The notes below the pieces were generated by a model that ran no database searches, was not told the DNA's origin, and worked only from the letters and a program-made list of their open reading frames with translations. Shown here in pieces: positions 3,041-55,065 of a stretch of 64,000 nucleotides of DNA (positions within the stretch are counted from its first letter, which is position 1; each line of letters starts with the position of its first letter). Source of the DNA: Alphaproteobacteria bacterium (lineage in GTDB: Bacteria > Pseudomonadota > Alphaproteobacteria > Micavibrionales > Micavibrionaceae). The position numbers and the translations under genes were made by a program. Where the stretch lies: assembly GCA_028289285.1 (NCBI GenBank), contig JANQRF010000007.1, forward strand, positions 127,696-191,695. The letters run 5' to 3'.

Positions 3041-3634
3041 ATGGCGAAACTAAAGGCAGTAGATATCTCCCCGAAACCAACCCGCGCAGAGGCTGAAAGC
3101 GCGGTGGAAACGCTGCTGCGTTATATCGGTGAGGATCCGTCCCGCCCGGGGCTTATTGAAACGCCGGACCGGTTTGTCCGCGCCTATGATGAATTTTTTG
3201 AAGGCTATAGGCTTGATCCGGTGAAAGAGCTCTCCAAGACCTTTGAGGATATTGAAGATTATAACGATATGGTCATTGTCCGCGGGATTGATTTTATCTC
3301 GCACTGTGAACATCACCTTGTACAGATTTCAGGTTCGGCGAGTGTTGCCTATTGGCCGGATCAAAAAGTGGTCGGGATTTCAAAGCTCGCCCGCGTGGTC
3401 GATATTTTTGCAAAGCGCCTGATTTCCCAGGAAAACATGACGACGCAAATTGCGAGTGTCATTGAAAAGGTTTTAAAGCCAAAAGGCACAGCGGTGCTGA
3501 TTAATGCCGATCATCACTGCATGTCCACCCGCGGCGTGGAGAAATCCGGGAGCAGCACCGTGACAACAGATTTTCGTGGTGTATTTGAAGCTTCAGAAGA
3601 TTTACGCAACAGGTTTTTAAGATTGTCAAAATAG
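3041..3634 (+). CDS. folE: GTP cyclohydrolase I
   Basis: The FISHCEHHL zinc-site motif and [22 protein letters not shown] are present. At 197 aa the length is typical of FolE. Confidence 0.95.
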
Positions 3635-39764: not shown

Positions 39765-39849
39765 GGAGGTGTGGCAGAGCGGTCAAATGCACCTGACTGT
39801 AAATCAGGCGACTTCGTCTACGGTGGTTCGAATCCATCCACCTCCACCA
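39765..39849 (+). tRNA. tRNA-Tyr (anticodon GTA), CCA-encoded
   Basis: Acceptor stem GGAGGTG/CACCTCC, anticodon arm CCTGA-CTGTAAA-TCAGG, long variable arm, T-loop GGTTCGAATCC, and 3' ACCA. Length is 85 nt. Confidence 0.93.
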
Positions 39850-39893
39850 CTCAGTCTCAACTTTCAGACACTTAGAGAATTTTGGCCCGTGCG

Positions 39894-39914
39894 CCCCGCA
39901 GTTCGCGGGGTTTT
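39894..39914 (+). terminator. terminator after tRNA-Tyr
   Basis: CCCCGC-AGTTC-GCGGGG hairpin followed by TTTT. Confidence 0.7.
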
Positions 39915-40014
39915 GTGTATCTGGTTTATCCGGTCAACGCGGAGAATCTGATTTTTCATCCCAAAACAGCCGTTTTTCTCTACGGGCTATTTTTGAGTGT
40001 CCCAAGACCTCAAT

Positions 40015-40150
40015 TTCCCTGTTTATCAGGGAATTAACAGGGAAATTTTTTACTTTTAGGATACAAAATAAAAGAAAGGCCAGAGAATCTCTCCCTTTGC
40101 TATGACTAGCTTTAAAGATAACAGGGAATTTTACAGGGACATCAGGGTAT
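40015..40150. repeat. cluster of CAGGGAA / TTCCCTG motifs downstream of and overlapping the recombinase 3' end
   Basis: TTCCCTG (40015-21), CAGGGAATT (40027-35), ACAGGGAAATT (40037-47), ACAGGGAATT (40121-30), ACAGGGAC (40133-40) and TCAGGGTAT (40142-50). Confidence 0.6.
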
Positions 40151-41666
40151 CAAAACTACCCATAATGATTTTCTGAACACCGGCCTTGGAGAGACCTTCA
40201 CGCTCTGCAATCGCTTTCATCGACATGCCGGCAAAATGCTCATCCCGCCAGACAATCCCTCTGACCAGGTTTTTGAGTTGCTGAGGCGGCAGGTCGAGAG
40301 GATCTGGTTCCTCATTCTCAGGTGTAATCACGACTGCACCTTTATAGGCACGGCGTGTGGTGAAGGGCACATTTAAGACATAGATGTTTTCTGATTTTTT
40401 CGGAATAGTGAGGTTGAGCTCTCTTTCTAAAAACTTTCGAAGTTTTGTAGCAGAGATCTCAATATTCAGGGTGTCTTTGTCTACGGTAACTTTCTCAATG
40501 CATTTTTGAACCAGATGATCTGCAGGCGGGCAGTGATCAGTGATATATTTGACCAGCTTTTCGTTATCAATGGTGTCCAGTTTTAATATATCAATAATTT
40601 CGCCTTTGAGAGCTTTACCGATGGTCTGTTCAATTTCATGAGCTGGCAGGCGTGCCATGATACCCTTTGGATGGTCCCGGTATTGAAGCAGGTTCTGGCT
40701 GACATAGTAACGATATAATTTTGCCTTCTTTTTAGCCCCAACTGGACTGTAGGGTGTTCCATCAATGTCAAAGAGCAGACCTTTTAAAAGGTTCATTTGC
40801 AGTGTCTTTTTGTGGCTACGTACAGATCCAGTTCCATGGCCTAAAAGTTTTTGAACTTTGTCCCAGGTTTCTTGGTCAATAATGGGGTCATGCTTGCCAT
40901 CATAAAGTTTGTCTTTGTGTCTGATTTTTCCAATATAGATCGGGTTTTTAAGAATGCTGTAGAGTGCTCCACGGCTATAGGGTTTACCGCCCAGCTTACT
41001 GCCACGCCTGGAGATGCGTGTTCTGCTGACAATTCCTTGTGTATCCAGATCTTTCTTTAGTTTTGCTACACATCCAAGTGCCAGATATCTGTCAAACAGA
41101 TGCCGTGCAGCTTTAGCGCCTTCTTTGTTGATGATAAGTTTCCGGTCTTTTACTTCATATCCAATAGGCGGGTTGCCCCCCATCCACATCCCTTTCTTTT
41201 TGCTGGCGGCAAATTTGTCACGAATACGTTCGGCGGATACTTCACGTTCAAACTGTGCGAAAGATAGTAGCACATTCAACGTCAAGCGACCCATCGAAGT
41301 CGTAGTATTAAAGCTCTGCGTCACACTCACAAACGTAACTTCATGTTCATCGAAGATTTCGACCAGTTTGGCGAAATCCATCAGAGAGCGTGTTAGACGA
41401 TCAATTTTATAAACGACGACAATATCAACTTTGCCTGCTTTGATGTCGACCAGAAGTTTTTGCAGGGCCGGGCGGTCCATATTCCCACCGGAAAATCCAC
41501 CGTCGTTATATTGGGTTTTAATAGCTTTCCAGCCTTCTGCACGTTGGCTGGCAACATAGGCCTCGCAGGCCTCTCGCTGAGCATCGAGCGTGTTGAAATC
41601 TGTATCCAACCCTTCATCCGTGGATTTTCTTGTATAAATCGCGCAGTTTTTTGTTGCCTGTTTCAT
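40131..41666 (-). CDS. large serine recombinase
   Basis: An N-terminal resolvase catalytic domain (AIYTRKSTDEG...VVVYKIDRLTRS) is followed by a recombinase domain and a long C-terminal region. Length is 511 aa. Confidence 0.9.
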   Translation of the reverse strand: MKQATKNCAIYTRKSTDEGLDTDFNTLDAQREACEAYVASQRAEGWKAIKTQYNDGGFSGGNMDRPALQKLLVDIKAGKVDIVVVYKIDRLTRSLMDFAKLVEIFDEHEVTFVSVTQSFNTTTSMGRLTLNVLLSFAQFEREVSAERIRDKFAASKKKGMWMGGNPPIGYEVKDRKLIINKEGAKAARHLFDRYLALGCVAKLKKDLDTQGIVSRTRISRRGSKLGGKPYSRGALYSILKNPIYIGKIRHKDKLYDGKHDPIIDQETWDKVQKLLGHGTGSVRSHKKTLQMNLLKGLLFDIDGTPYSPVGAKKKAKLYRYYVSQNLLQYRDHPKGIMARLPAHEIEQTIGKALKGEIIDILKLDTIDNEKLVKYITDHCPPADHLVQKCIEKVTVDKDTLNIEISATKLRKFLERELNLTIPKKSENIYVLNVPFTTRRAYKGAVVITPENEEPDPLDLPPQQLKNLVRGIVWRDEHFAGMSMKAIAEREGLSKAGVQKIIMGSFDTLMSL

Positions 41667-42052
41667 GATGCTTTCTTAAGTCCAAAAAAGAGATACCCAT
41701 TCCATCGTGATCCGGTGATGTCATTAGCGATTTGAGAGAGGCTAGTGTAGAGGCAATCCTGATATTCAAAGCCATCGACCTTGACGAGCACACTATGACG
41801 CTTACCCTTCCAGTTTCTGATAAGCCGTGTACCAGGCTTTAATGAACTACAGCTTCCATCAAAACATCTCGGATTATGTTTGTATTGTTTGACCAACTGC
41901 TCAAGCCGGGCCTTTTGTTCTTGTGTCAGGTTGTTTTGTTTTTTAAAGGTCAGGCTTTTTTCCATCATGCTTCGCCCAATCCGCGCATGTGGTTCCAAAC
42001 CCCACATCTTAGCCCACATTTGACGTAGTTCGTTCAGTGATAATTCGCGCAT
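41663..42052 (-). CDS. DUF2924 domain protein (serine-recombinase partner)
   Basis: ELRQMWAKMWG... and the C-terminal GTRLIRNWKGKRHSVLVKVDGFEYQDCLYTSLSQIANDITGSRWNGYLFFGL match the DUF2924 pattern as remembered. It overlaps the recombinase start by 4 nt. Confidence 0.75.
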   Translation of the reverse strand: MRELSLNELRQMWAKMWGLEPHARIGRSMMEKSLTFKKQNNLTQEQKARLEQLVKQYKHNPRCFDGSCSSLKPGTRLIRNWKGKRHSVLVKVDGFEYQDCLYTSLSQIANDITGSRWNGYLFFGLKKAS

Positions 42053-42220
42053 TTGAACCTCCTTCTAAGGTCCATACACGCTTCCTTTCGACGAGAAGTC
42101 CAGCCCAAAGAAATGATTGGTAAGACTTTCAATTACTTGAAATCTGTAAAAACAATTATGGATTTACTTGGTCATTTATGGAATCAATCAAGGGCTGTTA
42201 ATGAATCGAGTTAAGTTCTT

Positions 42221-45200
42221 ATGTCACAAATAAAAAGAGATGAAAAACCAACTATAAAACATCTTCGAGATATTCCTTCGGAGTTGGATGCTTTTGGTGG
42301 TCATGAAAAAATAGCAGCTTCTGTTAAAGAGGTTATAGACGCGCCTTTTGAAGGTGATAAGAAATATGCAAAAAAGCCAATTGGTATAGTTGGGAGGTGG
42401 GGTAGCGGAAAATCCACAGTAATAAGGCGCCTACGAAAGCTATATCAAGAAGCTTCTGATGTTTACATTTTTGAGTTTGATGCTTGGATATATGAAAATG
42501 ATCCTATTAGACGATCTTTTTTAGAAGCTTTTGTTAAGTTTCTTAGCCAAAAAGGTGTTAGCCTAACAACTGAAGAAAAATGGGAAGATCCATTAGACAG
42601 GATTAGGCGACAAAAAGAAAAACATAAAGTAGAAAGGACACCTGTATTAACTCTAGAAGGAAGATGGTTTGCTGCGTCATTACTCTTCTTTGCAATTGGT
42701 CTAAGGCTTGCAGGACATGATAACTTTCATTCTGAAGGTGAGATTTATTTCAGTTCTTTTGTGACTATCCTGATAGCTTCTCCTTTCTTGGTTCCTATAA
42801 TATCCTGGCTTCTTCGCCGGTTTTCTAATGATGAAAAGATTAGAAAACGAGATATGTTGTCTGTTTTTGTTAACAAAACGACAGATACCGTTATCAATGA
42901 AGTAACGAAAACGCCCGATCCAACAGCAATTGAGTTCCAAAAATTATTTTCAGATATTTTAGCGGATATAGGTAAGAATAATAAAAAAGCAAAAATAATA
43001 ATCGTTATTGATAACTTAGATCGTTTGCCTGAGGACAAAGCTCAGGCCATGTGGTCTACGATGCGAAGTTTTTTTATTGGGCGTGATGGAAATCATGACC
43101 ACTTTGAAAACGTTTGGGCTGTAGTGCCTATAGATCAAGGAGCTGTCTATTATATGTATGCTGATCAGGGCCATAAAGACCCAGAAAAAAGAGCAAAAGC
43201 TTACATAGAAAAAACATTTGAAATTGTTTTCAATCTTGGCCCGCCAGTTCTTTCAGATTGGGAAGATTTTATGGTGAGTATGGGTCAAGAAGCTTTTAGT
43301 GAGCTTGTATCGGAAGATGAATGGCGGAAGGTAGCTTTATTATATGACGTTTATCTCAATGAAAAAGCTGGGGAAGAGAGAAATAGAACTCAACGCGAAG
43401 CAGTAACGCCCAGAAAGATTATAAGCTTGATTAATGCTATCGGCTCAACTTATCGCCTAAATCCTGAATTCAACATACTCGTTATTGCCTTTTATTGTAT
43501 TTTTCAAGACGAAATAGAAGAACATATAAAAAACATAACCCAAGATTTTAAGTATCCTACTGCTACAGGTATATTAGGACGTAAAGATTGGCGCCAATAT
43601 GTTGCAGCCATATATTTTAATACCGACCCAGATACCGCAATGCAGGTTTTATTAGAAGACCCGCTTGCCAATTCATTGCGCGATGGCGATGTCAAAAAAT
43701 TAGAAGAGATATTTAGCCGTCCTGGTTGCTTAACAGTTGCAGAAAAAGTCGTATACAAATATGCGCCCATTTGGGCACCGTCAGAACCCCATAGACTTTT
43801 TAACTCTGCTTTTGCATTAAAAAGCTTACAAGAAAAGGATATAAATCCGCGGAAGTCTTGTTGGAAATATCTTCGCAATGCAACTGCAGAAATAGAAATG
43901 TGGCAATCTTTTGAGCCCCGGACGCCAGAAGGCATAGAAGCTTTGCTCGAGCAAACTCCTGAAAACTCTAAAGAAAGGATTTCTAAAAATATTCTAAATA
44001 GTTTGGAAAAAGTAACCAGTGATGAAGTTTTAGTGGATGATGCTTCTTCAAAAGTGTGGCTCAAGTCTTTGGGAGTAATTGATAAACATCTTGGTACCAA
44101 ATCAGACGATATCTTAAAAAGGTTTGATGCACCAGCAAACCTTGAGTTTAGAGTAAATTGTTTTCTAAGTTTCAGCGAGGATACTCCTTTACGTATAGTG
44201 CGTGTTCTGGCTTCGGGAGCTGAGGGGCAAGATCAAAAGAATTATGAGAGAGGTGTTTCCGACACCATAGCAAAAAGAGTTCAAAACTCACCTGATCTTC
44301 TGCCAAATGTATCAATAACTGTTAAGAAACTATTAGCAGTTATAAGTGATTGGGATTTAGATCTTATCATTAATAGCCTTGATGCTTCGGTTAGAAATGA
44401 AAAAAACGTATTGGTGGCATATCAAACACTAAATTACATTTTCAGAAAAGGTGGGCCGAATTCTTCAGCTGTACAAACTAAATACACACAACTTCATAAT
44501 GAAGGTTTTGTTCCAGATATACTTCATAAGTCAGTTACCGGCTCTAAATACGATGTTGCTGCATTGTGTGTTTTAAGCACGATGAAATTCAATCCGAATT
44601 TGGGTATCCAACATCATAGAGGCACATCGAACGAGGGGATGGCTTACTATAATCAATTTTTACAGGAGCCAGAAAAAGAAGGATATAAGCAATTATTAGA
44701 GCATGTTCTCAAATATGTACGTTCTATGTTCACAGCGCCAGAGCTATTAGAATTAGCGCAGGCACACCCTAATCACCAAAAACTTGTATCCAAGATATTA
44801 ATGCACTTTTTAGAGGAAGAAGGTGCAGATATTCAAATAAGTAGTGCAAATATTATTAATAACTATGATCAATATATCCAAACACTCTCTTCCGAAGGGT
44901 ATAAAAATTTGGTTGTAGTGGTCGCTCCTAAAAGGAAAGATTTTCAAGAACACCTCAATGAAAGAGATAATTTTGAGCCACTGGAACTACATAAGTTTTT
45001 ATCAAGCCTGGGGGGTGATTTTGGTAAAGGTTACGCCGAATTTGCCTTGGAAAAGCTGAAAAAGCTTGATGAAGATCAGTGGTTTAATAGTATATCTGAG
45101 GAAAATCAAAACCTTCAAATAGCGGTATCTCTTAGAAAATCTGGTAAAAACGTTAGCTTGCCAGCTTCATTTAGAGAGGCGTTAGAAAAACATACCATTG

Positions 45201-45709
45201 AAGTTTATCTAGGATCTAAAAATCCAGCACATTTAGCTGACGAATGGCATTTGTTGCCTACTTTATTGTCGCCATCACAAGAGAACACGTTCTTTGTTAA
45301 CTTGAGAGACCGATTACTTACGCTTGATTTTCAAGCTGGTTTTCATAGGGTTTTTGAGCTATTTGGCACTAAAATTTTTGAAAAAGGAGATTTCAAAGAT
45401 AAAGCTAAAGCTGATGAAGTAGCCCGCACCATAGTCATGCCGATGATAAGCGATAGCAAAGGAGTTACCTTTTTGAATAGTAACTCGCCATATATAAAAG
45501 CAATATTACCTCATTCTAAAAAAGATACACAGGAGGCTCTAATAGAAGAAATAAATAGCAAGTTACAGGATAACTATCAGAATGATAACTTTGGCGTCTA
45601 CGAAGCGGTTGCACAAAACTTAGCTCTTAAAAAATCAATTAAGTTTGCAAATGAAATAAGAAAAAAGAAAGAGCAAGAGCAGAAAGCAAAAGATAGTACG
45701 GGAGAATAA
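42221..45709 (+). CDS. KAP-family P-loop NTPase with about 700-aa uncharacterised C-terminal extension
   Basis: Walker A IGIVGRWGSGKST (aa 54-66) is present. Two hydrophobic helices are inserted in the NTPase domain (aa about 148-165 and 177-198), the KAP hallmark. A Walker B-like IIIVIDNLDRL follows. No family was recognised for aa about 460-1162. Confidence 0.8.
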   Translation: MSQIKRDEKPTIKHLRDIPSELDAFGGHEKIAASVKEVIDAPFEGDKKYAKKPIGIVGRWGSGKSTVIRRLRKLYQEASDVYIFEFDAWIYENDPIRRSFLEAFVKFLSQKGVSLTTEEKWEDPLDRIRRQKEKHKVERTPVLTLEGRWFAASLLFFAIGLRLAGHDNFHSEGEIYFSSFVTILIASPFLVPIISWLLRRFSNDEKIRKRDMLSVFVNKTTDTVINEVTKTPDPTAIEFQKLFSDILADIGKNNKKAKIIIVIDNLDRLPEDKAQAMWSTMRSFFIGRDGNHDHFENVWAVVPIDQGAVYYMYADQGHKDPEKRAKAYIEKTFEIVFNLGPPVLSDWEDFMVSMGQEAFSELVSEDEWRKVALLYDVYLNEKAGEERNRTQREAVTPRKIISLINAIGSTYRLNPEFNILVIAFYCIFQDEIEEHIKNITQDFKYPTATGILGRKDWRQYVAAIYFNTDPDTAMQVLLEDPLANSLRDGDVKKLEEIFSRPGCLTVAEKVVYKYAPIWAPSEPHRLFNSAFALKSLQEKDINPRKSCWKYLRNATAEIEMWQSFEPRTPEGIEALLEQTPENSKERISKNILNSLEKVTSDEVLVDDASSKVWLKSLGVIDKHLGTKSDDILKRFDAPANLEFRVNCFLSFSEDTPLRIVRVLASGAEGQDQKNYERGVSDTIAKRVQNSPDLLPNVSITVKKLLAVISDWDLDLIINSLDASVRNEKNVLVAYQTLNYIFRKGGPNSSAVQTKYTQLHNEGFVPDILHKSVTGSKYDVAALCVLSTMKFNPNLGIQHHRGTSNEGMAYYNQFLQEPEKEGYKQLLEHVLKYVRSMFTAPELLELAQAHPNHQKLVSKILMHFLEEEGADIQISSANIINNYDQYIQTLSSEGYKNLVVVVAPKRKDFQEHLNERDNFEPLELHKFLSSLGGDFGKGYAEFALEKLKKLDEDQWFNSISEENQNLQIAVSLRKSGKNVSLPASFREALEKHTIEVYLGSKNPAHLADEWHLLPTLLSPSQENTFFVNLRDRLLTLDFQAGFHRVFELFGTKIFEKGDFKDKAKADEVARTIVMPMISDSKGVTFLNSNSPYIKAILPHSKKDTQEALIEEINSKLQDNYQNDNFGVYEAVAQNLALKKSIKFANEIRKKKEQEQKAKDSTGE

Positions 45710-45737
45710 ATATTTTTCGTACTCCAACGTTATCACT

Positions 45738-47213
45738 TTACCAGAGCTTTTCTTCTCTTCTGACATATCTTGTTTTATGAATATCTTTTTTCATTTTATC
45801 AGTAAAACCGATAACTATGTTGTTTTTCTCATAAGACCATTCTAAAGCCTGAGACATACTGTCAATCTGATCGTCGTGGCGGCTATTGGGGAAATGCATG
45901 ATTTCGTTTTCAAAAGTAGGTAACCAATCCGCCTTATTTGGAATATAAACTTTGCCTGTTTCAATACGCGGGGTTTGCGCAATCATTCTGGTTTGTTTTT
46001 CTTGCTTGGGAATGATCGGCATGATGTTTAGCTTTGTACGTCTCTTTAAATCCTGAATAAGGGATATGCCTGACCCTTTATCTTCAATTAAAATAATACG
46101 TGCATTATATAATGCGGCGTGACGTGGGATTTGCCTTATTAAATCTGGAAATTCTAGGCGCTCTCTAAAAACATTAACGAGATACCATCCATGCTCATAT
46201 TCATACCAAGTCGTGCAGACAGAGTAATCATGAATTTCTTCTGCTTTGCTCGCAGTGTCCCAGCTTTGAAATATCTTCTTTGGGGGCTCGTCAGGTAAGC
46301 AATCGTAGCGTTTAAACCATTTGAGCTTTATTAATCCACCGCCATAGGGAGCAGGATTTTGCTGATATTGAGAAGAAAACGTGTAACTGCCTAATATTTT
46401 ATCGCGTAACTTAACAAGCTCTGCAGCACTCTCTCGCTCTGGATGTAAAGCCTCCCCAGGATTTCGAATGATCTGGTAGGCTTTGACAAAAGCGGGAGCT
46501 ATATCGATGATTTCTCTAGATTCACACAGGGCTGGTAAATTAAGATGAACCCACTCCTCTTGATTTAAAACATGGCCAACCAAATCGTCTTCATGAAGCC
46601 GCTGCATAATAATAATGATGCAGCCGTCCTTCTTATTATTTAGACGTGAGTATAATGTATTATCAAACCAGTCATTTACATTTTTTCTGCTAACTTCAGA
46701 ATGCGCTTCTTGAGGCTTAAGAGGGTCATCAATTATTAAAAAATCACCACCGCGTCCTGTCAATGTTCCGCCAACCGAGGTTGCCAGTCGAAACCCTTTT
46801 CTGGTTGTAAGGTATTCTGACTTTGTATTTGGGCTTGTTTCCAGTTTTGTATTTGGAAACAACGCTTGATAGAAATGAGATTCTATTAGTTTTCGGCAAT
46901 CAATTGAATGTTTTGTACTTAATTCTTGAGAATAGCTAGCTTGGATGATCTTTGCATTGGGGTTTTGTCCCCAAAGCCATGCAGGAAAGGCCACAGAGGC
47001 GCAGATAGACTTCATGTAGCGAGGTGGCATTGTAATGATGAGGCGCCGAATATCTCCACGAGCGCAGGCTTCTAAATGCTGTGCAATTAAGTCAATGTGC
47101 CAGTTATGAAGATAAACTTCTCCACCGGTCACAATATCAAAACTTTTTTGTATGAAAGCACTTAGGCTTTTACGCATCAGCGCCTGAAGTATAATCTTAT
47201 TATTAAGGCTCAT
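45738..47213 (-). CDS. phage terminase large subunit-like protein
   Basis: An ATPase part (ITMPPRYMKS, FLIIDDPLKP, IMQRLHEDDL) and a C-terminal RNaseH-like nuclease part are present. Length is 491 aa. Confidence 0.7.
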   Translation of the reverse strand: MSLNNKIILQALMRKSLSAFIQKSFDIVTGGEVYLHNWHIDLIAQHLEACARGDIRRLIITMPPRYMKSICASVAFPAWLWGQNPNAKIIQASYSQELSTKHSIDCRKLIESHFYQALFPNTKLETSPNTKSEYLTTRKGFRLATSVGGTLTGRGGDFLIIDDPLKPQEAHSEVSRKNVNDWFDNTLYSRLNNKKDGCIIIIMQRLHEDDLVGHVLNQEEWVHLNLPALCESREIIDIAPAFVKAYQIIRNPGEALHPERESAAELVKLRDKILGSYTFSSQYQQNPAPYGGGLIKLKWFKRYDCLPDEPPKKIFQSWDTASKAEEIHDYSVCTTWYEYEHGWYLVNVFRERLEFPDLIRQIPRHAALYNARIILIEDKGSGISLIQDLKRRTKLNIMPIIPKQEKQTRMIAQTPRIETGKVYIPNKADWLPTFENEIMHFPNSRHDDQIDSMSQALEWSYEKNNIVIGFTDKMKKDIHKTRYVRREEKLW

Positions 47214-47589
47214 TTTCTTTTCCTTTGTCTGAGCCTAGAAATCTTTCCAAGATCTTAAAGTCGGCCTCATCATTCATGATATTTTTGTTTAGACTCTGGA
47301 GCTCTTCTTCGTTGTTACTCATTTGAAGGAGAATAGGCAGTAATGTGCGTATTGCCTTTGGGTCTTGCTTTAAGGCGTTTGAGAATAGTCCTTTAACAAT
47401 AGCTTCTATTTTGCTGAGGTTTTTTGTCTCTCCATTTTCCTGAATTAGGATCATACTCTCCATTTCTTTTTTTATAAGTGTTTTCAGGTTTCTGGATTTC
47501 TTAGGCCGGCCATTTGGATTGCCAGACTTTCCTTTTTGAAACCGATTTTTATGGGGAGGTTTTTTATACCCAATTTGGTATTTACCCAT
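47203..47589 (-). CDS. DUF5681-like protein (putative small terminase/packaging accessory)
   Basis: The N-terminal FQKGKSGNPNGRPKK motif is present. The gene sits between the methyltransferase and terminase genes and overlaps both. Confidence 0.55.
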   Translation of the reverse strand: MGKYQIGYKKPPHKNRFQKGKSGNPNGRPKKSRNLKTLIKKEMESMILIQENGETKNLSKIEAIVKGLFSNALKQDPKAIRTLLPILLQMSNNEEELQSLNKNIMNDEADFKILERFLGSDKGKENEP

Positions 47590-48866
47590 TAGGAGATCTC
47601 CTTTTTCTCAAAAAATTTCTGGCTTTCGGCGTGTATGGCTACTTGTCCGGTTTCTTTTTGCCAGCGCTCAATAGTGATATCGATATAAGCTGGATCAAGC
47701 TCAATAAGCCTGGCCTGCCGGTTTGTTTTTTCAGCAGCTAGAAGGGCACTACCGCTTCCGCCAAAGCAATCCAGAACAACATCGTTCTGATTGGTGCAGT
47801 CCAAAATAGCATCTGCTATTAAAGAGACAGGCTTAACAGTAGGGTGATAGGATAAGAGCTCTGGTTTTCCATTAACGCCGTCATAGTCCCATACATTGGT
47901 GCGATATCGGCCATGTTTCCCAAGTTCAACATTATTAATGTGCTTAAGGGCACCCTTTTTGTATATGAAAATAAGCTCATGTTTGGAGCGATAAAGAGAC
48001 CCCATACCACCATTGTTTTTGTTCCAAATACACAGATTTTTAAGCTCGTCATAGTATTTATTACCTGCGGCAAGTATCTCTTCCATATGTCGCCAGTCCA
48101 TGCAGATATAATGCAAAGACCCATCAAGGCTGTGTTGGCTTAAATGCCTAAATATTGTCTCAAGAAAGTCAGTAAACTCTTCTTTGCTCATTTCACCGCT
48201 GGCCATAGCAAACTCTCTATGTTGAGTCCTTCCTTTCCCACAGACATGACCTTTAACAGGCACATTGTAGGGAGGGTCAGTGAAAACCATTCGTACTTTT
48301 TCCTGATTAAGCAAAAGTCTGAAAGACTCAGGCGATAAAGAATCGCCGCAATAAATTTGGTGATTCCCGAGGATCCACAAATCGCCTTTTTGTGTAACTG
48401 GACTTTGAGAAGGAACAGAAAGGTATTGGTCTTCTTCTTTACTATTTTTCTGATCTTCCAAAATGATCATATCTATCTCGGGCATTTCGAAACCGGTTAA
48501 ATCTATCGAAACCTCATCCTGGATATCTAATAAATGCTGAAGCTCTATGCTTAGAATGTCATTATCCCAGCCTGCTTTTTCAGCAAGTTTGTTGTCGGCC
48601 AGAATATAGGCGCGCTTTTCATTTTCACTCAGGTGATTAATACGGCGTACAGGGATAGCATCTATGCCCAGTTTGATGGCAGCCATAACACGCCCGTGAC
48701 CAGCAATAATCATATTTTCCTGGTCAATCAAAACAGGGTTAACAAAGCCAAATCGCTCAATACTGTTGGCAATTTGGGCAATTTGCCGCTTGCTATGAAT
48801 GCGTGCGTTGTTTTTATAAGGAATTAAATTTTCAGGGTCTGCATATTCCAAATTTTCGACGTCCAT
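47589..48866 (-). CDS. ParB-like N-terminal domain fused to DNA methyltransferase (N6A/N4C, DPPY type)
   Basis: A ParB/Srx-like domain (NPVLIDQENMIIAGHGRVMAA), catalytic FTDPPYNV and the SAM motif VLDCFGGSGSALLAAE are present. SD AAGGAG precedes the ATG. Confidence 0.85.
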   Translation of the reverse strand: MDVENLEYADPENLIPYKNNARIHSKRQIAQIANSIERFGFVNPVLIDQENMIIAGHGRVMAAIKLGIDAIPVRRINHLSENEKRAYILADNKLAEKAGWDNDILSIELQHLLDIQDEVSIDLTGFEMPEIDMIILEDQKNSKEEDQYLSVPSQSPVTQKGDLWILGNHQIYCGDSLSPESFRLLLNQEKVRMVFTDPPYNVPVKGHVCGKGRTQHREFAMASGEMSKEEFTDFLETIFRHLSQHSLDGSLHYICMDWRHMEEILAAGNKYYDELKNLCIWNKNNGGMGSLYRSKHELIFIYKKGALKHINNVELGKHGRYRTNVWDYDGVNGKPELLSYHPTVKPVSLIADAILDCTNQNDVVLDCFGGSGSALLAAEKTNRQARLIELDPAYIDITIERWQKETGQVAIHAESQKFFEKKEIS

Positions 48867-48949
48867 AGTTTCTCCTTTTGTTTGAGAGAATCATTATGGA
48901 TCAGGTCGAATTGTGGATGCAGAGCACACACAATCTGGACTTAAATTTT

Positions 48950-49612
48950 TTAACTTTTCTTTTCGATTGTTCTAAGATGTTGATAAATCTTGTTTTCTGT
49001 TACTTCTATGTCGTCATATATTTTGTTTTGTATTTTAGAAAAAATAATTTGAGCACGTTTTTCCCGGTTCATATTAGGATCTAAGGTGCTGTTAATATCT
49101 GTAATGTCTCTTTTAAGTTTATCGTATTTTGAAGCTCTGGATTTTCCACCTGCTACTGGTGCATCTTTATGTTTTTTGAATTTGGGCTCTACTTTGTAAG
49201 ATAGTTCTAGCATTAGACTAAGCTTCCCTAAATCTAGAAGCACTGTTGGGTGACCTCCAAGGTCCTGGCCCTCAATTTCGCATAATTTATACAGTATAGA
49301 ACGTGCTCTCCGGGCTTTAGGCGCCATGCGATCAATCACATCAGATAATACTTCTCCCTCATTTTTTGTGCTGAGAAGCTGTCTATCTATATCATGTAGA
49401 TGGCTAATGTTTTTATATCCTTCCTCTTCTAATGCCTTGCAAGCTCTAGACTCGATATTCAATAAGCGTGCTTTTATGTCGTATTGATAGTTAAACAGAT
49501 TTGAGGCCTTTTCGCATAGATCCCAAAATGTCTGTTCATCCTCATCGATAGAGCAACTTAAAGAATGTCTTTCAAATATACCGCTATCAGTTATTTTCTC
49601 GCTTTTTCTCAT
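48950..49612 (-). CDS. hypothetical protein (220 aa, mostly helical)
   Basis: An ORF with AAGGA 9-10 nt upstream of its ATG. It overlaps the end of the upstream zinc-ribbon gene by 26 nt, suggesting an operon. No family was recognised. Confidence 0.45.
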   Translation of the reverse strand: MRKSEKITDSGIFERHSLSCSIDEDEQTFWDLCEKASNLFNYQYDIKARLLNIESRACKALEEEGYKNISHLHDIDRQLLSTKNEGEVLSDVIDRMAPKARRARSILYKLCEIEGQDLGGHPTVLLDLGKLSLMLELSYKVEPKFKKHKDAPVAGGKSRASKYDKLKRDITDINSTLDPNMNREKRAQIIFSKIQNKIYDDIEVTENKIYQHLRTIEKKS

Positions 49613-50144
49613 TTTTTAAATCCTTGTGATAAATTCTTTGACCAGACCTTGTTGTGAAGGATATTTTGCATTTTGAAATCGCAGGATTTCTTCTGCTCAT
49701 AATTTTAAAAGGAGAGGTTTGATTTGGTAATAGAGGGCTATACTCAATAAGCCCATCATCAGATTTTACAAAGCTTCCGTCATCTTTTCTAAAATTACCA
49801 ACAACTCTCAAATTCTTTAAGGGCGTATCCGCAATATTTTTTACTTCTCCTTCAATAATCATATAGCCATGGTCCTCATAGCACGACCAGGATGCAACTT
49901 CTAAAAGTTGTGTATATGGTGTGTTCTGTGGATTAATTTTTTTCTGTTCAGGCTGGGATTGAGTCTGAACATTTTGGCTAGTCTCAGGCGGCTCTGTAAA
50001 TTTTCCTAGAGCGATAACGCCTAAAATGAACAGTACAAATATAAGGGGAAGAGACAGCTTTTTAGGTTTAGCCCCGCAATTCAGACAGGACTTTGCATTC
50101 TTGCTAATTTCATGATCGCATTCTTTACATTTCACTAAAGCCAT
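49587..50144 (-). CDS. zinc-ribbon / single-TM / FxLYD-like domain protein
   Basis: An N-terminal CKECDHEISKNAKSCLNCG zinc ribbon and a TM helix (LSLPLIFVLFILGVIALG) are present. The C-terminal beta-rich domain resembles FxLYD-domain proteins as remembered. SD AAGGAG lies 8 nt before the ATG. Confidence 0.6.
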   Translation of the reverse strand: MALVKCKECDHEISKNAKSCLNCGAKPKKLSLPLIFVLFILGVIALGKFTEPPETSQNVQTQSQPEQKKINPQNTPYTQLLEVASWSCYEDHGYMIIEGEVKNIADTPLKNLRVVGNFRKDDGSFVKSDDGLIEYSPLLPNQTSPFKIMSRRNPAISKCKISFTTRSGQRIYHKDLKNEKKRENN

Positions 50145-50164
50145 TTCAAAACTCCTTTCGATGT

Positions 50165-50341
50165 TAAAAAGTCACCAAGATTGCTCTTGGTGACCGGGAG
50201 TTTATAAGCTGCGTTGAAACAACCGCGACGATCTTTAGCCGCGAGGCTTGGACATACATCGCCGCCTCCCGGACATAAGACCGAAAGGCGACATCATTCC
50301 GGCTGATGTCAGCCGTTCAACGCAGGGTTATAAAGCCCCGG
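50165..50341 (-). ncRNA. candidate structured RNA (leader/riboswitch-like or sRNA), unclassified
   Basis: A GC-rich block sits in an AT-rich spacer. An interrupted 22-bp closing helix (50194-50218 with 50316-50341) encloses internal hairpins at 50301-50314 and 50237-50248. Alternative pairings exist, and a terminator follows. Confidence 0.4.
50166..50194 (-). terminator. intrinsic terminator at the 3' end of the RNA candidate, 21 nt before the zinc-ribbon gene ATG
   Basis: Read on the minus strand: a 9-bp stem GUCACCAAG-AGCAAU-CUUGGUGAC followed by UUUUU. There is no T-run on the plus strand, so the element is orientation-specific. Confidence 0.6.
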
Positions 50342-50368
50342 AAAGCACAAAATTGCGCTTACACGAGT

Positions 50369-50398
50369 AAATTAGCTCGAAGTTACGATATGTATCAA
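50369..50398 (-). promoter_or_regulatory. possible sigma70-type promoter for the RNA candidate
   Basis: Minus strand reads TTGATA (50398-50393), an 18-nt spacer, then TAATTT (50374-50369). This is a weak, eye-only call. Confidence 0.25.
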
Positions 50399-50466
50399 GC
50401 TATTGTTTTATAGAAATAAAATTCATAGTTTTGTAATTCAAATACATAATCTATAAAACTATTGAG

Positions 50467-51102
50467 ATGAATGAAGCACTTATCAACTATAACTTTATGA
50501 AAGGCCGTCTGGCTGAGGCAATTATCGAGAGATTATTTGTCTCTCTTGGGATGGACGTCTACCCAGTCGGCTTTGAAGCACAATTACCTCGTTTGGCGAG
50601 GTTAAAAGCATCTGGCAAATTAAAACCAAGTGCCATTACCAAGTTTGAATACGGACCCGATTTTATTGTCTGTGATAATGATCCAAAAAATAAGGGAGAA
50701 AATGAAGCGTTTGAAGTAGAGGTTAAATTTAGATCTGGAAGTGATATCAATATATTTGAACTTCGTAAGTATGAAAGTCAGGACTTAATTTTTCTTTTTA
50801 TAAATAAAGAAAAGATCTACTGCATAGAAAACAAAGAAATAGAAAAACTGCCCAAGCACTTCATCAAAACTAAAAACGGTAAAAATATGCCAATGGTGTC
50901 TTTTGAAGATTGTATTTTACTAGAGCATCATAATAGATTCCGCTTTAATAAGAAGCAAAGAGATAAAATAAGATATTTTTCAGCGCTAATTAACGCTTCG
51001 CTGAACCATTTTAAAGAAGAATGGAAAGTGAAACAGGATCTTCTAGAATGTTTTGAAGGGGATAAAGAAAAACTCAATTCTGTTTGTGAGAGAATAGGGT
51101 AA
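50467..51102 (+). CDS. PD-(D/E)xK nuclease-fold-like protein (candidate)
   Basis: GPDFIV (D65), then 17 residues, then FEVEVK (E85-x-K87), preceded by a helix with conserved acidic residues (RLAEAIIERL). This matches the restriction-endonuclease-like core pattern. There is no recognisable DNA-binding domain. Confidence 0.5.
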   Translation: MNEALINYNFMKGRLAEAIIERLFVSLGMDVYPVGFEAQLPRLARLKASGKLKPSAITKFEYGPDFIVCDNDPKNKGENEAFEVEVKFRSGSDINIFELRKYESQDLIFLFINKEKIYCIENKEIEKLPKHFIKTKNGKNMPMVSFEDCILLEHHNRFRFNKKQRDKIRYFSALINASLNHFKEEWKVKQDLLECFEGDKEKLNSVCERIG

Positions 51103-51164
51103 GTTAGACCAAAATATTTCCATAGTAAATGTGATAATATGCCGTATGAAAATGCTAAAGTATT

Positions 51165-51536
51165 TTAAGCTGCCGCCAGTTGTCCGATCTTCTCTAAACA
51201 CGCCTGGATATCGGATTTTTCTACACACCCCGCAATGCCGGCTTCTTTGGCTTTTTCGATGCGATCGTCAGTGAAGGCTTCGCTGATGGCGAGGATGGGG
51301 GTGTTTGGGCTTTGTTCGAGGATTTTAGCAGCAATGTCAGGTGCCTCTGCATCCGGCAGATTGTAGTCACACAGCACTAAATCATGCACAGTTGGATCGA
51401 AAACCGAAAGCGCGTCTTCCGCTGTGGCCGCATGAACAAGCTGTATAGATGCATCCAGTCTTTCCGCCTGAATTTTCATCAGGGCGAACTGCGCGGCTTC
51501 ATCCTCAATATAAAGAACGGTGATTGTTTTACTCAT
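51165..51536 (-). CDS. single-domain response regulator (REC)
   Basis: VLYIEDE... with phospho-acceptor context LVLCDYNLPD. Length is 123 aa. It shares an ATGA start/stop overlap with the upstream gene. Confidence 0.85.
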   Translation of the reverse strand: MSKTITVLYIEDEAAQFALMKIQAERLDASIQLVHAATAEDALSVFDPTVHDLVLCDYNLPDAEAPDIAAKILEQSPNTPILAISEAFTDDRIEKAKEAGIAGCVEKSDIQACLEKIGQLAAA

Positions 51537-51955
51537 CCGGCAGCGGTCTTTTTATTACGCAGACCGTCCGCCCAATCCATGGTTTTCCGGATCACGGCCT
51601 CGATTTGTTCGGGTGTATTGGTGACATCCTTGACAATATAATCCAGCGCCCCTTTGCGCGCGGCTTCGGCCTGTATAGTCTGGTTTGGCTCGCCGGTTAG
51701 AATGACCGCTGGCAGGATATCGTTGCCCGCCTGCTTCTGCAGCGCTTCAAGAATTTTCATGCCGTTCATTTCCGGCAGGTAATAATCGACGAAGGTGCAA
51801 TCAATATTCTTGTCTTTGGAAAGCATGAGTGCCTCCTCACCGTCCTGCGCGGTGAAAATATCGTAATCACCTTCCCCCTGCTTGAGGAGGTTGGTGTAAA
51901 ACTCCAGATCCTCCGGGTTATCGTCAATAATCAGGATTGTCAGCTTTTTAGCCAT
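51533..51955 (-). CDS. single-domain response regulator (REC)
   Basis: ILIIDDNPEDLEF..., CTFVDYYLPEMNG and a conserved Lys region (YIVKD) are present. Length is 140 aa. The ATG directly follows the upstream TAA. Confidence 0.88.
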   Translation of the reverse strand: MAKKLTILIIDDNPEDLEFYTNLLKQGEGDYDIFTAQDGEEALMLSKDKNIDCTFVDYYLPEMNGMKILEALQKQAGNDILPAVILTGEPNQTIQAEAARKGALDYIVKDVTNTPEQIEAVIRKTMDWADGLRNKKTAAG

Positions 51956-52408
51956 TTATTTTTCCCCCTTTGGCAAGATTGCAATTTCAAACCAATATTC
52001 TTTCAAGTGCTTGATGGCCTGCATGAAGCTGTCCATATCCACAGGCTTGGCGATATAGGTGTTCGCGCCCATCCGGTAGCATTCCTCAATATCGCGCTCA
52101 TCAGACGATGTTGTCAGCACGACAACTGGAATTTCCTTAAACCTTGCATCGGCCTTGATTTTTTTCAACACCTTGCGTCCGTCTATGCCCGGCATGTTAA
52201 GGTCAAGCAGGATAATGCCCGGCTTGGGCGGATTATCATTCGCGTATTGGCCTTCGCCATAAAGATAGTCGAATGTTTCCTGCCCGTCCTCACAGCGGGC
52301 CAGCGGGTTGGCCAGGTTGGAATCACGCAGCGCGCGCTCAGTGACTTCATAATCCTCATCGCTATCCTCGACGATGAGAATAGTTTGACTGGAGGTGATA
52401 TTGCTCAT
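51956..52408 (-). CDS. single-domain response regulator (phytochrome-associated Rcp-like)
   Basis: ILIVEDSDEDYEV..., IILLDLNMPGIDG and VVVLTTSSDERD...YIAKP are present. Length is 150 aa. It shares an ATGA overlap with the bphP stop. Confidence 0.9.
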   Translation of the reverse strand: MSNITSSQTILIVEDSDEDYEVTERALRDSNLANPLARCEDGQETFDYLYGEGQYANDNPPKPGIILLDLNMPGIDGRKVLKKIKADARFKEIPVVVLTTSSDERDIEECYRMGANTYIAKPVDMDSFMQAIKHLKEYWFEIAILPKGEK

Positions 52409-55065
52409 GTTTTTTCTCCCAATTTTTCTCCGGGTAATGTGAAATAGAAAGTTGTACCTTTACCTGGCTCGGATTCCAGCCAGATGCGTCCCTGATGCCG
52501 TTCGACAATTTTTTTGACAAAAGTAAGGCCGGAGCCCGTGCCGCCACCGTAAGCCGTTGGTTTATGCAGGCGTTTAAAAATACGGAAAATCTCATCATAC
52601 ATATCTTCAGCGATGCCGATCCCGTTATCCTTGACGGTAAAAACCGGCTCTTTTTTGCGGCCTTTCTTTTCTTCGAGCCAGCCGATTTCGATGCGCTTTT
52701 CGGGACTGTCGTTATATTTCACCGCGTTGGAGATAAGGTTACGAAACAGCTCGGTCACCCGCGTCGTATCACACACGATAGTTGGTAAGGGGACCGGCAT
52801 GTCCAAATGCACATGCTCATCATCCAGCGAGGGCAAGGTATGACGAATATCTTCAATCACATCATTGAGATTTGTTTCCTGAATCGCTCTCTCACTACGC
52901 CCGATGCGGGAATAATAGAGCAAGTCGTTTATAAGTGTACTCATGCGTTTGGATAAATCCATCAGACGGCTAAGCTTTCGTTTTCCTTCATCATCCAGCT
53001 TGTCTTCATAATCGCGGATCAGAAAACTGGAAAGATTATGAATGCCGCGCAAAGGTTCTTTCAAATCATGCGAGGCAATATAAGCGAACTCGTCCAGCTC
53101 CTGATTAGAGCGCTCCAGATCTTTCGCATATTTGCGCGTCATTTGTTCGGCTTCCTTGCGTTCGCTGATATCGGTCGCAATACTGCACAGCGCATACATT
53201 TCACCTTCCGAATTATAGAGCGGGAATTTCACTGTGATCATGTGATAATTGCGCTTATCCGTAGGAAAGGTCTCTTCAAGCGTCATGGATTGGGAGGTTT
53301 TGAACACTTTCGCATCACTGCCCTGTATTTTCCTGGCAATTTTGGCAGGAAAGAGATCGCGGTCGGTCTTATGCAGGATGTCTTTCATCTCCTTGCCCAG
53401 CATATCGAGCGTGCTTTGATTGGCGAACAGATAGCGGCCCTTTTCGTCCTTCATATAGATGAAGGCGCTGCTGTTCTCCATGATGGTCTCGAGATCGGCT
53501 TCATGCTGGCGCAGCTCATCTTTGACCTTTTTTTCCAGTAGCATTTGCGCGATTTTTCCGGCAACAATCTCCTGCTCGTCTGTCCATTTGGGCGCCGTGC
53601 CGCCAACATTTTCTTTCCACAGCTCAAAAGAACCACGCGGAGTCAGGCGAAATCCGGCGCTGTCCATGGAGATTTTCTTTTCCGGCTTGCCTGCCCAGTT
53701 GATCTGGCGTGTGATTTCCTTGCGAAACCACAGAACATAATCACGCGTATCATTGCCCACAGGTACGGCCAGCATGCCACAGGCCAGCGGCAAAGCTTTA
53801 GCAGATAAATCGAGCTTTTCCCCTAAACTGATCGTTGAAAAAATTTTATCCGGATGGTTTTTATCCAGCCAGTTCAGGATTTTTTTAAGCGCGGCTTTTG
53901 GTGGTGTTTCGCCAAAACCATAAATTTCTCTATCAATGCGGCAGATCAGACTATCGGCATCCATGGCCTGTTGAAAAAGCCCATTTCTGGCCTTCAAAAC
54001 GCTGCGCAATGTTTTTTCCGGCGCCAGGGCCGCACTGATTTGTGCGAGTAAAAGTTGCTGACGCTGTGCAATATCGGATTTTTCTGATTCTTCCAACGTT
54101 GAAAGATGTGAAGAAAAAATATGTCCCGTGAGTTCAGCAGCCATGCGTGTGCGGTAGGAGATATATTTTTCTTCATTATGATGGCAAGCGACCAGCCCCC
54201 ATAATTTTTGGTTTTGAATGATTGAAACTGTCATCGACGCTCTGATTTTCATGTTATCGAGATACTGGATATGTACGGGCGAAACGCTGCGCAGTGTCGA
54301 CAGGCTGAGGTCCGTCGGGTTACCTGTCGCCGGGTTCATGGTTGGTACAATCGGCACGGGGTCATAGTGAATATCGCAGATCAGGCGCAAATAGCTTTTG
54401 GAAAAAAGTTTCCGGGCCTGCTCAGGAATGTCCGAAGCCGGGAAATGCAGGCCGAGATAAGAGGGCATATGGTCAGCCTTGCTCTCGGCAATGACGGACC
54501 CGTTCCAATTCTCATCGAATTTATAAAGTTTAACGCGGTCAATACCGGTCAGGTCACGAATTTCGTTTACAATGGTCTGGTTCAGTTTTTCAAGTGTGTC
54601 AGCCTCACGTAAATTGACGGAAAAATTCCGCAGACGATCGTAAAATTGCTGAAGATCGTCGTGCTTTTCCTCTTTTGGTGCGGGTTCCATTTCCAGGATC
54701 AAATGCCCTTCCGAACGATGTGCCACGACATCGAAGCTACGTAAAGATTGACCGGTTTTCACTGTAAAGACTGTCGATTTCACCGGTTGTAATTCACCGG
54801 AGGTAACAATTTTTTTCAACATCCTTGTCTGGGGCTCACCAATCACATCACTGATCGGGCGATCAATCAGGGCATTGACGGGCTTACCAATAAAATCATT
54901 CATATTGGCGCTGGCCTGGCGGATCGTCATGTCAGTTTCTGAAATCGCAAACAAAATGCCGTGCGGCTGAATTGCGCCGGGAATGTGGATTGGCTCTTTG
55001 GCGCAGCCCTCAAGTGCTTTCTCCAGTTCGTTTTCTGTCAGGGCGGTTTTAAGAGCGGCGGTCAT
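52405..55065 (-). CDS. bphP: bacteriophytochrome histidine kinase (PAS-GAF-PHY-PAS-HisKA-HATPase)
   Basis: An N-terminal Cys lies just before the conserved EPIHIPGAIQPHG (LEGCAKEPIHIPG). GAF motifs (SVSPVHIQYLDNM, ASMTVSI, WGLVACHH), an extra PAS, the H-box FAYIASHDLKEPLRGI and G-boxes are present. The start is at ATG 55065, in an ATGA overlap with bphO. Confidence 0.92.
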   Translation of the reverse strand: MTAALKTALTENELEKALEGCAKEPIHIPGAIQPHGILFAISETDMTIRQASANMNDFIGKPVNALIDRPISDVIGEPQTRMLKKIVTSGELQPVKSTVFTVKTGQSLRSFDVVAHRSEGHLILEMEPAPKEEKHDDLQQFYDRLRNFSVNLREADTLEKLNQTIVNEIRDLTGIDRVKLYKFDENWNGSVIAESKADHMPSYLGLHFPASDIPEQARKLFSKSYLRLICDIHYDPVPIVPTMNPATGNPTDLSLSTLRSVSPVHIQYLDNMKIRASMTVSIIQNQKLWGLVACHHNEEKYISYRTRMAAELTGHIFSSHLSTLEESEKSDIAQRQQLLLAQISAALAPEKTLRSVLKARNGLFQQAMDADSLICRIDREIYGFGETPPKAALKKILNWLDKNHPDKIFSTISLGEKLDLSAKALPLACGMLAVPVGNDTRDYVLWFRKEITRQINWAGKPEKKISMDSAGFRLTPRGSFELWKENVGGTAPKWTDEQEIVAGKIAQMLLEKKVKDELRQHEADLETIMENSSAFIYMKDEKGRYLFANQSTLDMLGKEMKDILHKTDRDLFPAKIARKIQGSDAKVFKTSQSMTLEETFPTDKRNYHMITVKFPLYNSEGEMYALCSIATDISERKEAEQMTRKYAKDLERSNQELDEFAYIASHDLKEPLRGIHNLSSFLIRDYEDKLDDEGKRKLSRLMDLSKRMSTLINDLLYYSRIGRSERAIQETNLNDVIEDIRHTLPSLDDEHVHLDMPVPLPTIVCDTTRVTELFRNLISNAVKYNDSPEKRIEIGWLEEKKGRKKEPVFTVKDNGIGIAEDMYDEIFRIFKRLHKPTAYGGGTGSGLTFVKKIVERHQGRIWLESEPGKGTTFYFTLPGEKLGEKT

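Follow-up and report, generated by a model that had tools for sequence, protein, structure and literature searches.

The 64,000-nucleotide (nt) stretch analysed here (the window; contig JANQRF010000007.1 of an alphaproteobacterium of the Micavibrionaceae, positions 127,696 to 191,695 of the forward strand) carries a GC-rich block between two divergent genes that is a heavily folded RNA of ~160-200 nt. The element belongs to a large family of ~155-175-nt structured RNAs that the models of Rfam 15 do not detect at gathering score. With a probability of about 0.6, we read the block as the 5' leader RNA of an autonomous transcription unit, an extended tRNA-mimicking RNA of mobile elements of the sRNA-Xcc1/C4 kind. 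Its 3' domain would be distantly related to sRNA-Xcc1, an RNA of mobile elements, and similar to phage RNAs processed by RNase P (C4, P4 CI and IsrK).

The spacer (50145-50466, 322 nt) lies between the open reading frames (ORFs) 49587-50144(-) and 50467-51102(+). The initial annotation, made from the letters alone, had described a GC-rich block within this AT-rich spacer, and the composition bears it out: GC is 0.56 in 50194-50341 and 0.37 and 0.26 in the flanks. All the helices it listed were also recovered by an inverted-repeat scan. The repeats are 50194-50207/50328-50341 (14 nt, 86% matching), 50209-50218/50316-50325 (10/10), 50191-50200/50266-50275, which is an alternative pairing to the closing helix, and 50171-50180/50185-50194 (10/10), with UUUUU next to it at 50170-50166. 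The strong folding that had been predicted holds against shuffled sequences, the minus-strand fold of 50160-50345 reaching -87.2 kcal/mol (z = -8.3, a value that no shuffle out of 200 matched). On the plus strand z is -7.3, which is so near that folding energy alone does not settle the strand. That the minus-strand RNA is the constrained one follows from the excess of G-U over A-C in the paired cells of the family alignment (299 vs 88), from the conserved promoter and from the co-oriented Shine-Dalgarno (SD) sequence and ORF.

Homologues were gathered by a pattern scan of species-representative genomes, which yielded at least 120 loci; individual loci, from this and other searches, are cited below by L numbers. 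Seventy-five non-redundant members were aligned with MAFFT on sequence only, with no structure fitting. The structure counted on this alignment, 55 pairs, was written down from the window sequence, and the controls were 500 column shuffles and partners slid by 1-3 columns. The covariation in homologous loci, which had been named as a check on the structure, is very strong: 91.5% of cells pair, compared with 75.5% in the shuffles (0/500 as high) and 37-47% for slid partners, and 42 of the 55 pairs show compensatory changes on both sides. Every helix covaries.

On its 5' side, the supported fold has a hairpin, P1a, and an H-type pseudoknot formed by S1 and S2; on its 3' side, P1', H1 and H2 make up a three-way junction. 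Two covarying long-range helices, P2 and P3, clamp the 5' domain to the 3' domain (Table 1). P1a is 91.5% paired with compensatory changes in all 4 pairs (GC/GU/AU), and its 8-nt loop, CUUUAUAA, contains the 5' strand of P2. P2 is 90.7% paired and changes on both sides in 5 of 7 pairs (e.g. AU/CG/UA/GC at one column pair). In P3, which is 85-91% paired, all 7 pairs covary, and the helix can be extended to 10 base pairs (bp) in the window copy (50325-50316 with 50218-50209). The pairing of the H2-loop region with its own 5' strand is locus-specific, with own-versus-other-locus p = 2e-13 and 9e-18. The S1 core is 98.1% paired and S2 95.4%, with 6/6 S2 pairs covarying. The helices of the 3' domain (P1', H1, the apical hairpin and H2) are 84-99% paired with compensatory changes. 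RNAalifold independently gives P1a, S2, P1', H1 and H2, that is, a three-way junction and no long closing helix. The 3' strand 50218-50192 partners four 5' segments in succession: P3, H2, P2 and P1'.

This fold departs from the aptamer closed by a 22-bp helix that had been proposed. The 7-bp and 10-bp segments of that helix survive as P2 and P3, but its outermost segment, CCGGG/CCCGG, is weakly supported (85.6% paired vs 81.1% shuffled), and both RNAalifold and the covariation favour the tRNA-like three-way junction plus pseudoknots. The hairpin at 50314-50301 is present as S1, but its loop is not free, being engaged in a pseudoknot with 50295-50290. The pairing of CCGGGAG with CUCCCGG, regarded as a competitor of the closing helix, does exist, but as the conserved closing stem P1'. 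The hairpin at 50248-50237 is the apical hairpin of the 3' domain.

The family is widespread. Among the matches listed, ~100 loci are clearly homologous over the full element. Most belong to the Alphaproteobacteria (Micavibrio and relatives, Rhodospirillales, Hyphomicrobium, Rhodopseudomonas, Bradyrhizobium, Afipia) or to the Verrucomicrobia (Akkermansiaceae, Luteolibacter), with up to six copies per genome. The viral copies L003-L006 were recovered by RNA-based pattern scans. A covariance model, R1, built from the 75 non-redundant members, scores held-out divergent copies at 67-120 bits and finds exactly one copy in the window at 153 bits, the window being a seed member; it has no match in L001, the only viral relative of the downstream zinc-ribbon gene, or in chance pattern hits. 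At gathering thresholds, Rfam 15 assigns no family to the element in the whole window or in 19 homologous loci, where only tRNAs and one group II intron are found. The annotation's by-eye judgement that the element matches none of the riboswitch consensus sequences it named stands for the window at gathering score. The novelty that it implied holds at the Rfam thresholds but is tempered by a consistent weak resemblance to sRNA-Xcc1. A blastn search of the element against phage and plasmid collections gave no match, and literature searches found no described motif with such properties.

The sequence marks the 3' half as a likely mimic of the tRNA acceptor end, in which P1' is followed directly by a conserved unpaired RCCA. 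In the alpha-type rows of the alignment, P1' starts with G(+1) in 54/56, preceded by U(-1) in 34/56, and ends before a purine discriminator (54/56), two C's (54/56 and 55/56) and a terminal A (51/56). RCCA follows the stem in 69 of 76 alpha-type copies. A stem that begins with G(+1), frequently behind U(-1), and a purine discriminator plus CCA directly after a conserved helix are also what tRNA shows; unlike tRNA, the element lacks both an anticodon arm and a D arm. It is called neither by ARAGORN nor by the tRNA model of Rfam, which in the window report only tRNA-Tyr (39765-39849).

The 3' RCCA is recognised by bacterial RNase P, which has a preference for U(-1) and counts the precursor of phage C4 RNA among its substrates (PMC4919922). 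By these features, RNase P would cut between U50275 and G50274, and trimming to the CCA would leave a stable RNA of ~87 nt (50274-50188). The 87-nt segment is the counterpart of sRNA-Xcc1, which in Xanthomonas is an 88-nt RNA by Northern blotting and end mapping (PMC2996969).

In E-value mode, the sRNA-Xcc1 model (RF02221) matches the window at 50184-50274 (-) with 32.1 bits (E = 8.7e-4; gathering score 53), and the closing stem of the match is the pairing 50266-50275/50191-50200. It also matches L003 (30.7 bits) and 7 of 8 further members (28.3-41.4 bits). Positions 1-87 of the 87-position model are aligned in every match, and the same helices covary in the present family. The two RNAs share their architecture: besides the closing stem there are two hairpins, one of them long, with an internal loop rich in A and a small hairpin at its apex, then an unpaired linker and, at the end, ACC. 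The predicted processed length here (87 nt) is close to that measured in Xanthomonas (88 nt). Their setting is alike too, since both occur in horizontally acquired DNA, ahead of a cargo gene (symE or the gene for an ORF6N protein) that has the same orientation: sRNA-Xcc1 is found in Xanthomonas integron cassettes and APSE phages, upstream of cargo genes, and is also annotated in Xylella islands. However, the loop is AUGUCCAAG here and AUACAAUACCC in the Rfam consensus, the present RNAs carry an extra ~70-nt 5' domain (P1a, S1/S2) locked by P2 and P3, and they occur in other phyla, the Alphaproteobacteria and Verrucomicrobia.

The likeness to C4, IsrK and P4 CI lies in organization. All are small structured RNAs in the leader of a mobile-element operon, with a closing stem followed by RCCA. 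IsrK (of Gifsy-1) is grouped with C4 (of phages P1 and P7) in Rfam, while clan CL00128 as retrieved lists C4 alone. P4 CI is processed from a leader and pairs with complementary sites both upstream (seqA) and downstream (seqC) (PMC4825925); the upstream site in its own transcript has its parallel here in P2/P3. IsrK has its own leaky terminator, and the product of read-through into the downstream ORFs is the regulated mRNA (PMC4825925). IsrK and P4 CI are the closest functional precedents. The differences are that no antirepressor or antiterminator gene lies downstream here, and that most copies are flanked by housekeeping genes, outside phages.

The RNA is read from the minus strand under a promoter that is conserved in this island family and sits at the very edge of the integrated island. 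This sigma-70-like promoter lies ~8 nt upstream of P0, a 5'-terminal hairpin; a hairpin of varying sequence adjoins the element at this position in most listed homologues, judged by eye. The promoter is conserved in four syntenic islands (L035, L069, L084 and L115), its -35 is also present in L110, and island homology breaks off immediately upstream of the -35. In the whole family, 27 members have a promoter-like match, and in 22 of these the best one ends 20-33 nt before P1a; the scoring found none in 48 of 75 members, the window included, and matched 12 of 75 shuffled upstream sequences.

The window copy ends in a perfect 10-bp stem (50194-50185/50180-50171) with a GCAA loop and five U's, the make-up of an intrinsic terminator. 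The hairpin and UUUUU had been described correctly except for the stem length, given as 9 bp. The terminator pattern scan did not list 50166-50194, though its criteria apparently apply there, and listed instead a weaker site inside the RNA, 50244-50223. The SD sequence AAGGAG (50157-50152) and the ATG (50144-50142) follow as annotated. The base of the terminator and P1' have 3 nt in common, the 5' arm of the terminator covering the last 3 nt of P1' plus ACCA, so that the two structures would compete where terminator function is most sensitive. In the window copy, the 10-bp hairpin and U5 would end most transcripts at ~50166, giving an RNA of ~195 nt, and read-through past this point would express the downstream genes. 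Read-through would be favoured when the tRNA-like stem is fully folded or occupied, again by virtue of the shared nucleotides. The linker J may act as an anti-SD: over 13 nt (50288-50276) it is 85% complementary to 50166-50154, a segment overlapping the SD region.

Several observations weigh against the leader reading or parts of it. The scores against sRNA-Xcc1 (28-41 bits in the window, L003 and seven members) are all well under the gathering score of 53 bits, which leaves homology to it suggestive. RCCA is retained in only 13 of 27 verrucomicrobial copies, and the stacked P1' and H1 make 17 bp, beyond the 12-bp acceptor/T-arm stack of tRNA. The case for RNase P is reasoned from sequence features alone. 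The terminator of the initial annotation is not a constant feature of the family: the hairpin with a U-tract occurs in 40 of 76 alpha-type copies and in none of 27 verrucomicrobial copies. With terminators missing from about half of the alpha-type copies, control of termination cannot be the general output of the family. In addition, the overlap between terminator and P1' is just 2-4 nt, and specific covariation between J and the SD sequence across the family is not significant (permutation p = 0.14).

The genes behind the RNA are extremely diverse but enriched for exported or membrane proteins. Among 90 downstream ORFs scanned, most have no Pfam family and the commonest family occurs 3 times; 36 of the 90 (40%) have an N-terminal hydrophobic segment, compared with 26 of 254 neighbouring ORFs (p = 3e-9). 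Co-orientation and the distance to the SD sequence and start codon, commonly 35-65 nt past the AACUC junction, are kept in nearly all members, and in one subgroup the SD directly adjoins ACCA. The proposed association with a zinc-ribbon/FxLYD gene did not hold: L001, whose product is 43% identical, has no such RNA upstream, so that the RNA is not tied to the zinc-ribbon gene, and the genes downstream in the family are diverse. An exact-protein look-up of the zinc-ribbon protein returned the source genome only.

In the window, the RNA stands first in the operon of a small integrative island, whose recombinase lies at the other end. The island (39765-50420) has a GC content of 36-41%, compared with ~48-52% around it. 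In the window, L035, L069, L084 and L115 the order is RNA, a variable cargo gene, ParB-methylase, DUF5681, p129 (129 aa) and a large serine recombinase. The recombinase has a tRNA gene next to it in the window, L035 and L084. Between DUF5681 and p129, the window also carries a terminase and a KAP-like NTPase (by eye). Beyond the island genes listed in Table 1 follow, in order, the terminase large subunit, DUF5681, the ParB-N/DNA methylase, a 220-aa protein and the zinc-ribbon protein, with the RNA and its promoter at the edge; the operon that the RNA heads runs via ParB-methylase, DUF5681 and terminase toward the recombinase. A search of the far side of the island (49000-52500) for repeats of the 3' end of tRNA-Tyr found none reaching 11 nt. 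Its position at the extreme edge of a serine-recombinase island makes the RNA, with its promoter, an obvious candidate regulator of the island operon. Elsewhere in the family, most copies are not in phages and the flanks are mostly housekeeping genes, integrases being found in 5/143 upstream and 2/111 downstream.

Table 1. Parts of the RNA, its signals and island genes in the window (positions in the window; minus-strand parts are written 5' to 3' in descending order)
Feature	Position	Strand	Description and basis
Sigma-70-like promoter	50369-50398	-	-35 TTGATA (50398-50393), spacer 18 nt, -10 TAATTT (50374-50369); predicted start ~50362-50360
P0, 5'-terminal hairpin	50343-50360	-	AAGCGCA-AUUU-UGUGCUU, 7 bp including one G-U; sequence; outside the pair counts
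P1a hairpin	50323-50340	-	CGGGG (50340-50336) with CCCUG (50327-50323); alignment pair counts, RNAalifold
P2, long-range pseudoknot helix	50201-50334	-	UUUAUAA (50334-50328) with UUAUAAA (50207-50201); alignment pair counts
P3, long-range helix	50212-50322	-	CGUUGAA (50322-50316) with UUCAACG (50218-50212, within the H2 loop); alignment pair counts
S1/S2, H-type pseudoknot	50290-50315	-	S1 CGGCU (50315-50311)/AGCCG (50304-50300); S2 GACAUC (50310-50305, S1 loop)/GAUGUC (50295-50290); S2 also from RNAalifold
J, pyrimidine-rich linker	50275-50289	-	GCCUUUCGGUCUUAU; possible anti-SD
tRNA-like 3' domain, 87 nt	50188-50274	-	P1', H1, internal loop, apical hairpin, H2, junction, A-CCA; alignment pair counts, RNAalifold
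P1'	50274-50266 with 50200-50192	-	closing stem of the three-way junction
H1	50265-50258 with 50232-50225	-	part of the tRNA-like 3' domain
Invariant internal loop	within H1 arm	-	AUGUCCAAG/AAAG; family alignment
Apical hairpin	50248-50237	-	above the AUGUCCAAG/AAAG loop
H2	50224-50220 with 50211-50207	-	loop region includes the P3 3' strand
AACUCC junction and tail	3' domain	-	followed by single-stranded A-CCA at 50191-50188; sequence, alignment
Intrinsic-terminator-like hairpin	50166-50194	-	GUCACCAAGA-GCAA-UCUUGGUGAC + UUUUU; sequence, fold, repeat scan
SD and first ORF	49587-50157	-	AAGGAG 50157-50152, ATG 50144-50142; 185-aa zinc-ribbon membrane protein, first gene of the island operon
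tRNA-Tyr	39765-39849	+	ARAGORN, Rfam tRNA model
Large serine recombinase	40131-41666	-	island gene
p129, 129-aa partner protein	41663-42052	-	island gene
1162-aa protein, candidate KAP-type P-loop NTPase (by eye)	42221-45709	+	island gene

Several other readings have to be weighed against that of a tRNA-mimicking leader. The initial annotation took the layout to be that of a transcription-attenuating riboswitch or leader, and the structured minus-strand RNA, alternative pairings, terminator-like hairpin, SD sequence and ATG on which it drew are all there; a conserved pseudoknotted domain in the 5' untranslated region and, in the window copy, a terminator sharing helix nucleotides and then an SD sequence are what such a riboswitch would have. 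In a ligand-sensing riboswitch, a small molecule (e.g. a signalling nucleotide) would act on the pseudoknotted domain, stabilise P1' against the terminator or free the SD sequence, and turn on a regulon of exported/surface proteins and islands. This fits the complex conserved fold with its invariant junction nucleotides (GGAGGCGG, AUGUCCAAG, AAAG, AACUCC), the several copies per genome, each before a different gene, the nucleotides that P1' and terminator have in common, and the enrichment of exported-protein genes; second-messenger riboswitches likewise precede such genes. However, the 90 downstream ORFs show no coherent metabolic or transport association, and their diverse, non-metabolic character is unlike that of classical metabolite riboswitches. 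No ligand can be named, and the expression platform is inconsistent, since the terminator is not conserved in the family and one subgroup has its SD adjoining ACCA. Nor are a conserved RCCA tail and a likeness to sRNA-Xcc1 traits of riboswitches, and we consider a riboswitch doubtful. The alternative also offered by the annotation, a stand-alone small RNA of the island, is possible. In its strict form, a purely trans-acting RNA of the sRNA-Xcc1 type would be transcribed from its own promoter to its own terminator and target mRNAs elsewhere, with the downstream gene just a neighbour or reached by incidental read-through. The window copy does have its own promoter and a strong terminator, sRNA-Xcc1 accumulates as a discrete 88-nt RNA (PMC2996969), and one locus (L049) has the 3' domain alone. 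Yet nearly all members keep the orientation and the distance to a co-oriented SD sequence and start codon, roughly half of the alpha-type copies are without a U-tract terminator, and where the SD directly follows ACCA the RNA must be part of the mRNA. The variable loop sequences, moreover, pair with the RNA's own 5' strand and are not free, so that a strictly trans-acting role is improbable.

An immunity antisense RNA of the C4/P4 CI type, whose processed RNA would pair through its loop with sites downstream in the operon and block translation or cause termination, has in its favour that the element heads a mobile-element operon, that P2/P3 provide an upstream complementary site analogous to seqA of P4, and that C4 (RF01695) weakly matches L003 (28.5 bits, below its threshold of 45 bits). 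C4 has no match in the window at E <= 10, though, and the H2-loop region shows no locus-specific complementarity to the downstream 150 or 400 nt (own-versus-other-locus p = 0.59 and p = 0.22), which sets the family apart from C4 and P4 CI. With no icd/ant-like genes and most copies outside phages, this reading is very improbable. We regard as equally remote an element acting as DNA, such as a miniature inverted-repeat transposable element, an attC-like site or a tRNA/tmRNA-like integration hot spot, or a self-cleaving ribozyme. The inverted repeats around a GC-rich block within AT-rich DNA, the tRNA genes near several copies and the variable downstream content, which could mimic 3'-end integration, would suit a DNA element, and complex pseudoknots are typical of ribozymes. 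But the compensatory substitutions and the excess of G-U over A-C point to selection on RNA, the window holds a single copy and no near-identical copies were found, as also in the phage and plasmid collections, and the RNA lies inside the island at the end away from the recombinase. For a ribozyme, there is no cleavage-site evidence. An integration hot spot was rejected in view of the few integrases flanking copies.

Beyond the tRNA-mimicking leader reading itself, one may tentatively envisage, as a rather unlikely extension, a new cis-acting class of regulatory RNA. Its tRNA-mimicking three-way junction, pseudoknot-clamped to a 5' sensor domain, would gate a dispersed set of exported/surface-protein genes and island operons in Alphaproteobacteria and Verrucomicrobia, the gate being RNase P or other tRNA-maturation machinery, or a ligand. 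If this were true, sRNA-Xcc1 would be merely the 3' module of such leaders. Confirmation of the fold and the processing would add a large and complex RNA family (~100 homologous loci among the matches listed, two phyla, three pseudoknot-type interactions) and would recast the sRNA-Xcc1-like 'virulence sRNAs' as gene-leader modules travelling with accessory genes. A conserved tRNA-like RCCA end in mRNA leaders would connect the control of horizontally acquired genes and of envelope-protein genes with the enzymes of tRNA maturation.

Individual loci show how the element varies. In a metagenome-assembled genome of the Magnetococcales (L049:658-738, -), the 3' tRNA-like domain stands alone (model positions 71-151, 48.8 bits), without the 5' domain, so the 3' module can occur by itself, as does sRNA-Xcc1. 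L019, L042, L102, L120 and L123 keep S1/S2 and the 3' domain, and an unrelated hairpin replaces P1a and the 5' strands of P2/P3. In the stretch compared by eye, the 3' regions (H2, linker and P1' 3' strand) of L120 and L032 differ by one base. These sequences suggest that the 5' part has been exchanged as a module between copies. Two complete copies lie in tandem in L040 (1499-1948, -), 252 nt apart and ~500 nt from a tRNA gene (914-984), an arrangement reminiscent of a Xylella genomic island for which five sRNA-Xcc1 copies in tandem are reported (PMC12189769). In the Chthoniobacteraceae copy L030, the 3' end of a group II intron (3377-3450, +; Rfam Intron_gpII, 55.7 bits) overlaps the expected P0/P1a site; an intron appears to have been inserted into the 5' hairpin region of this element.

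Among the downstream genes, many in Rhizobiales and Rhodospirillales (L058, L063, L064, L066, L081, L085, L086, L087, L101 and others) encode paralogous, secreted-looking proteins of ~90-107 aa that share a Cys and then an A-rich helix (e.g. C..A.EAI..AEKAL). Among the 90 first downstream ORFs scanned, no Pfam family fitting these proteins was found. In Verrucomicrobia, the genes after the RNA often encode secreted proteins sharing the motif IPDGTPPPPEPPKP. On the other side of the spacer in the window, the divergent 211-aa ORF 50467-51102 (+) is low in GC and without a Pfam match. None of the four syntenic islands has a homologue of it, and it falls beyond the region of island homology; it may be a separate insertion. 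A 40-aa ORF antisense to the RNA, 50248-50370 (+), is almost certainly spurious, given that family indels there are not multiples of three and that changes compensate in base pairs. Finally, a 6S RNA gene lies at L032:1280-1440 (+), ~560 nt from that locus's copy of the element.

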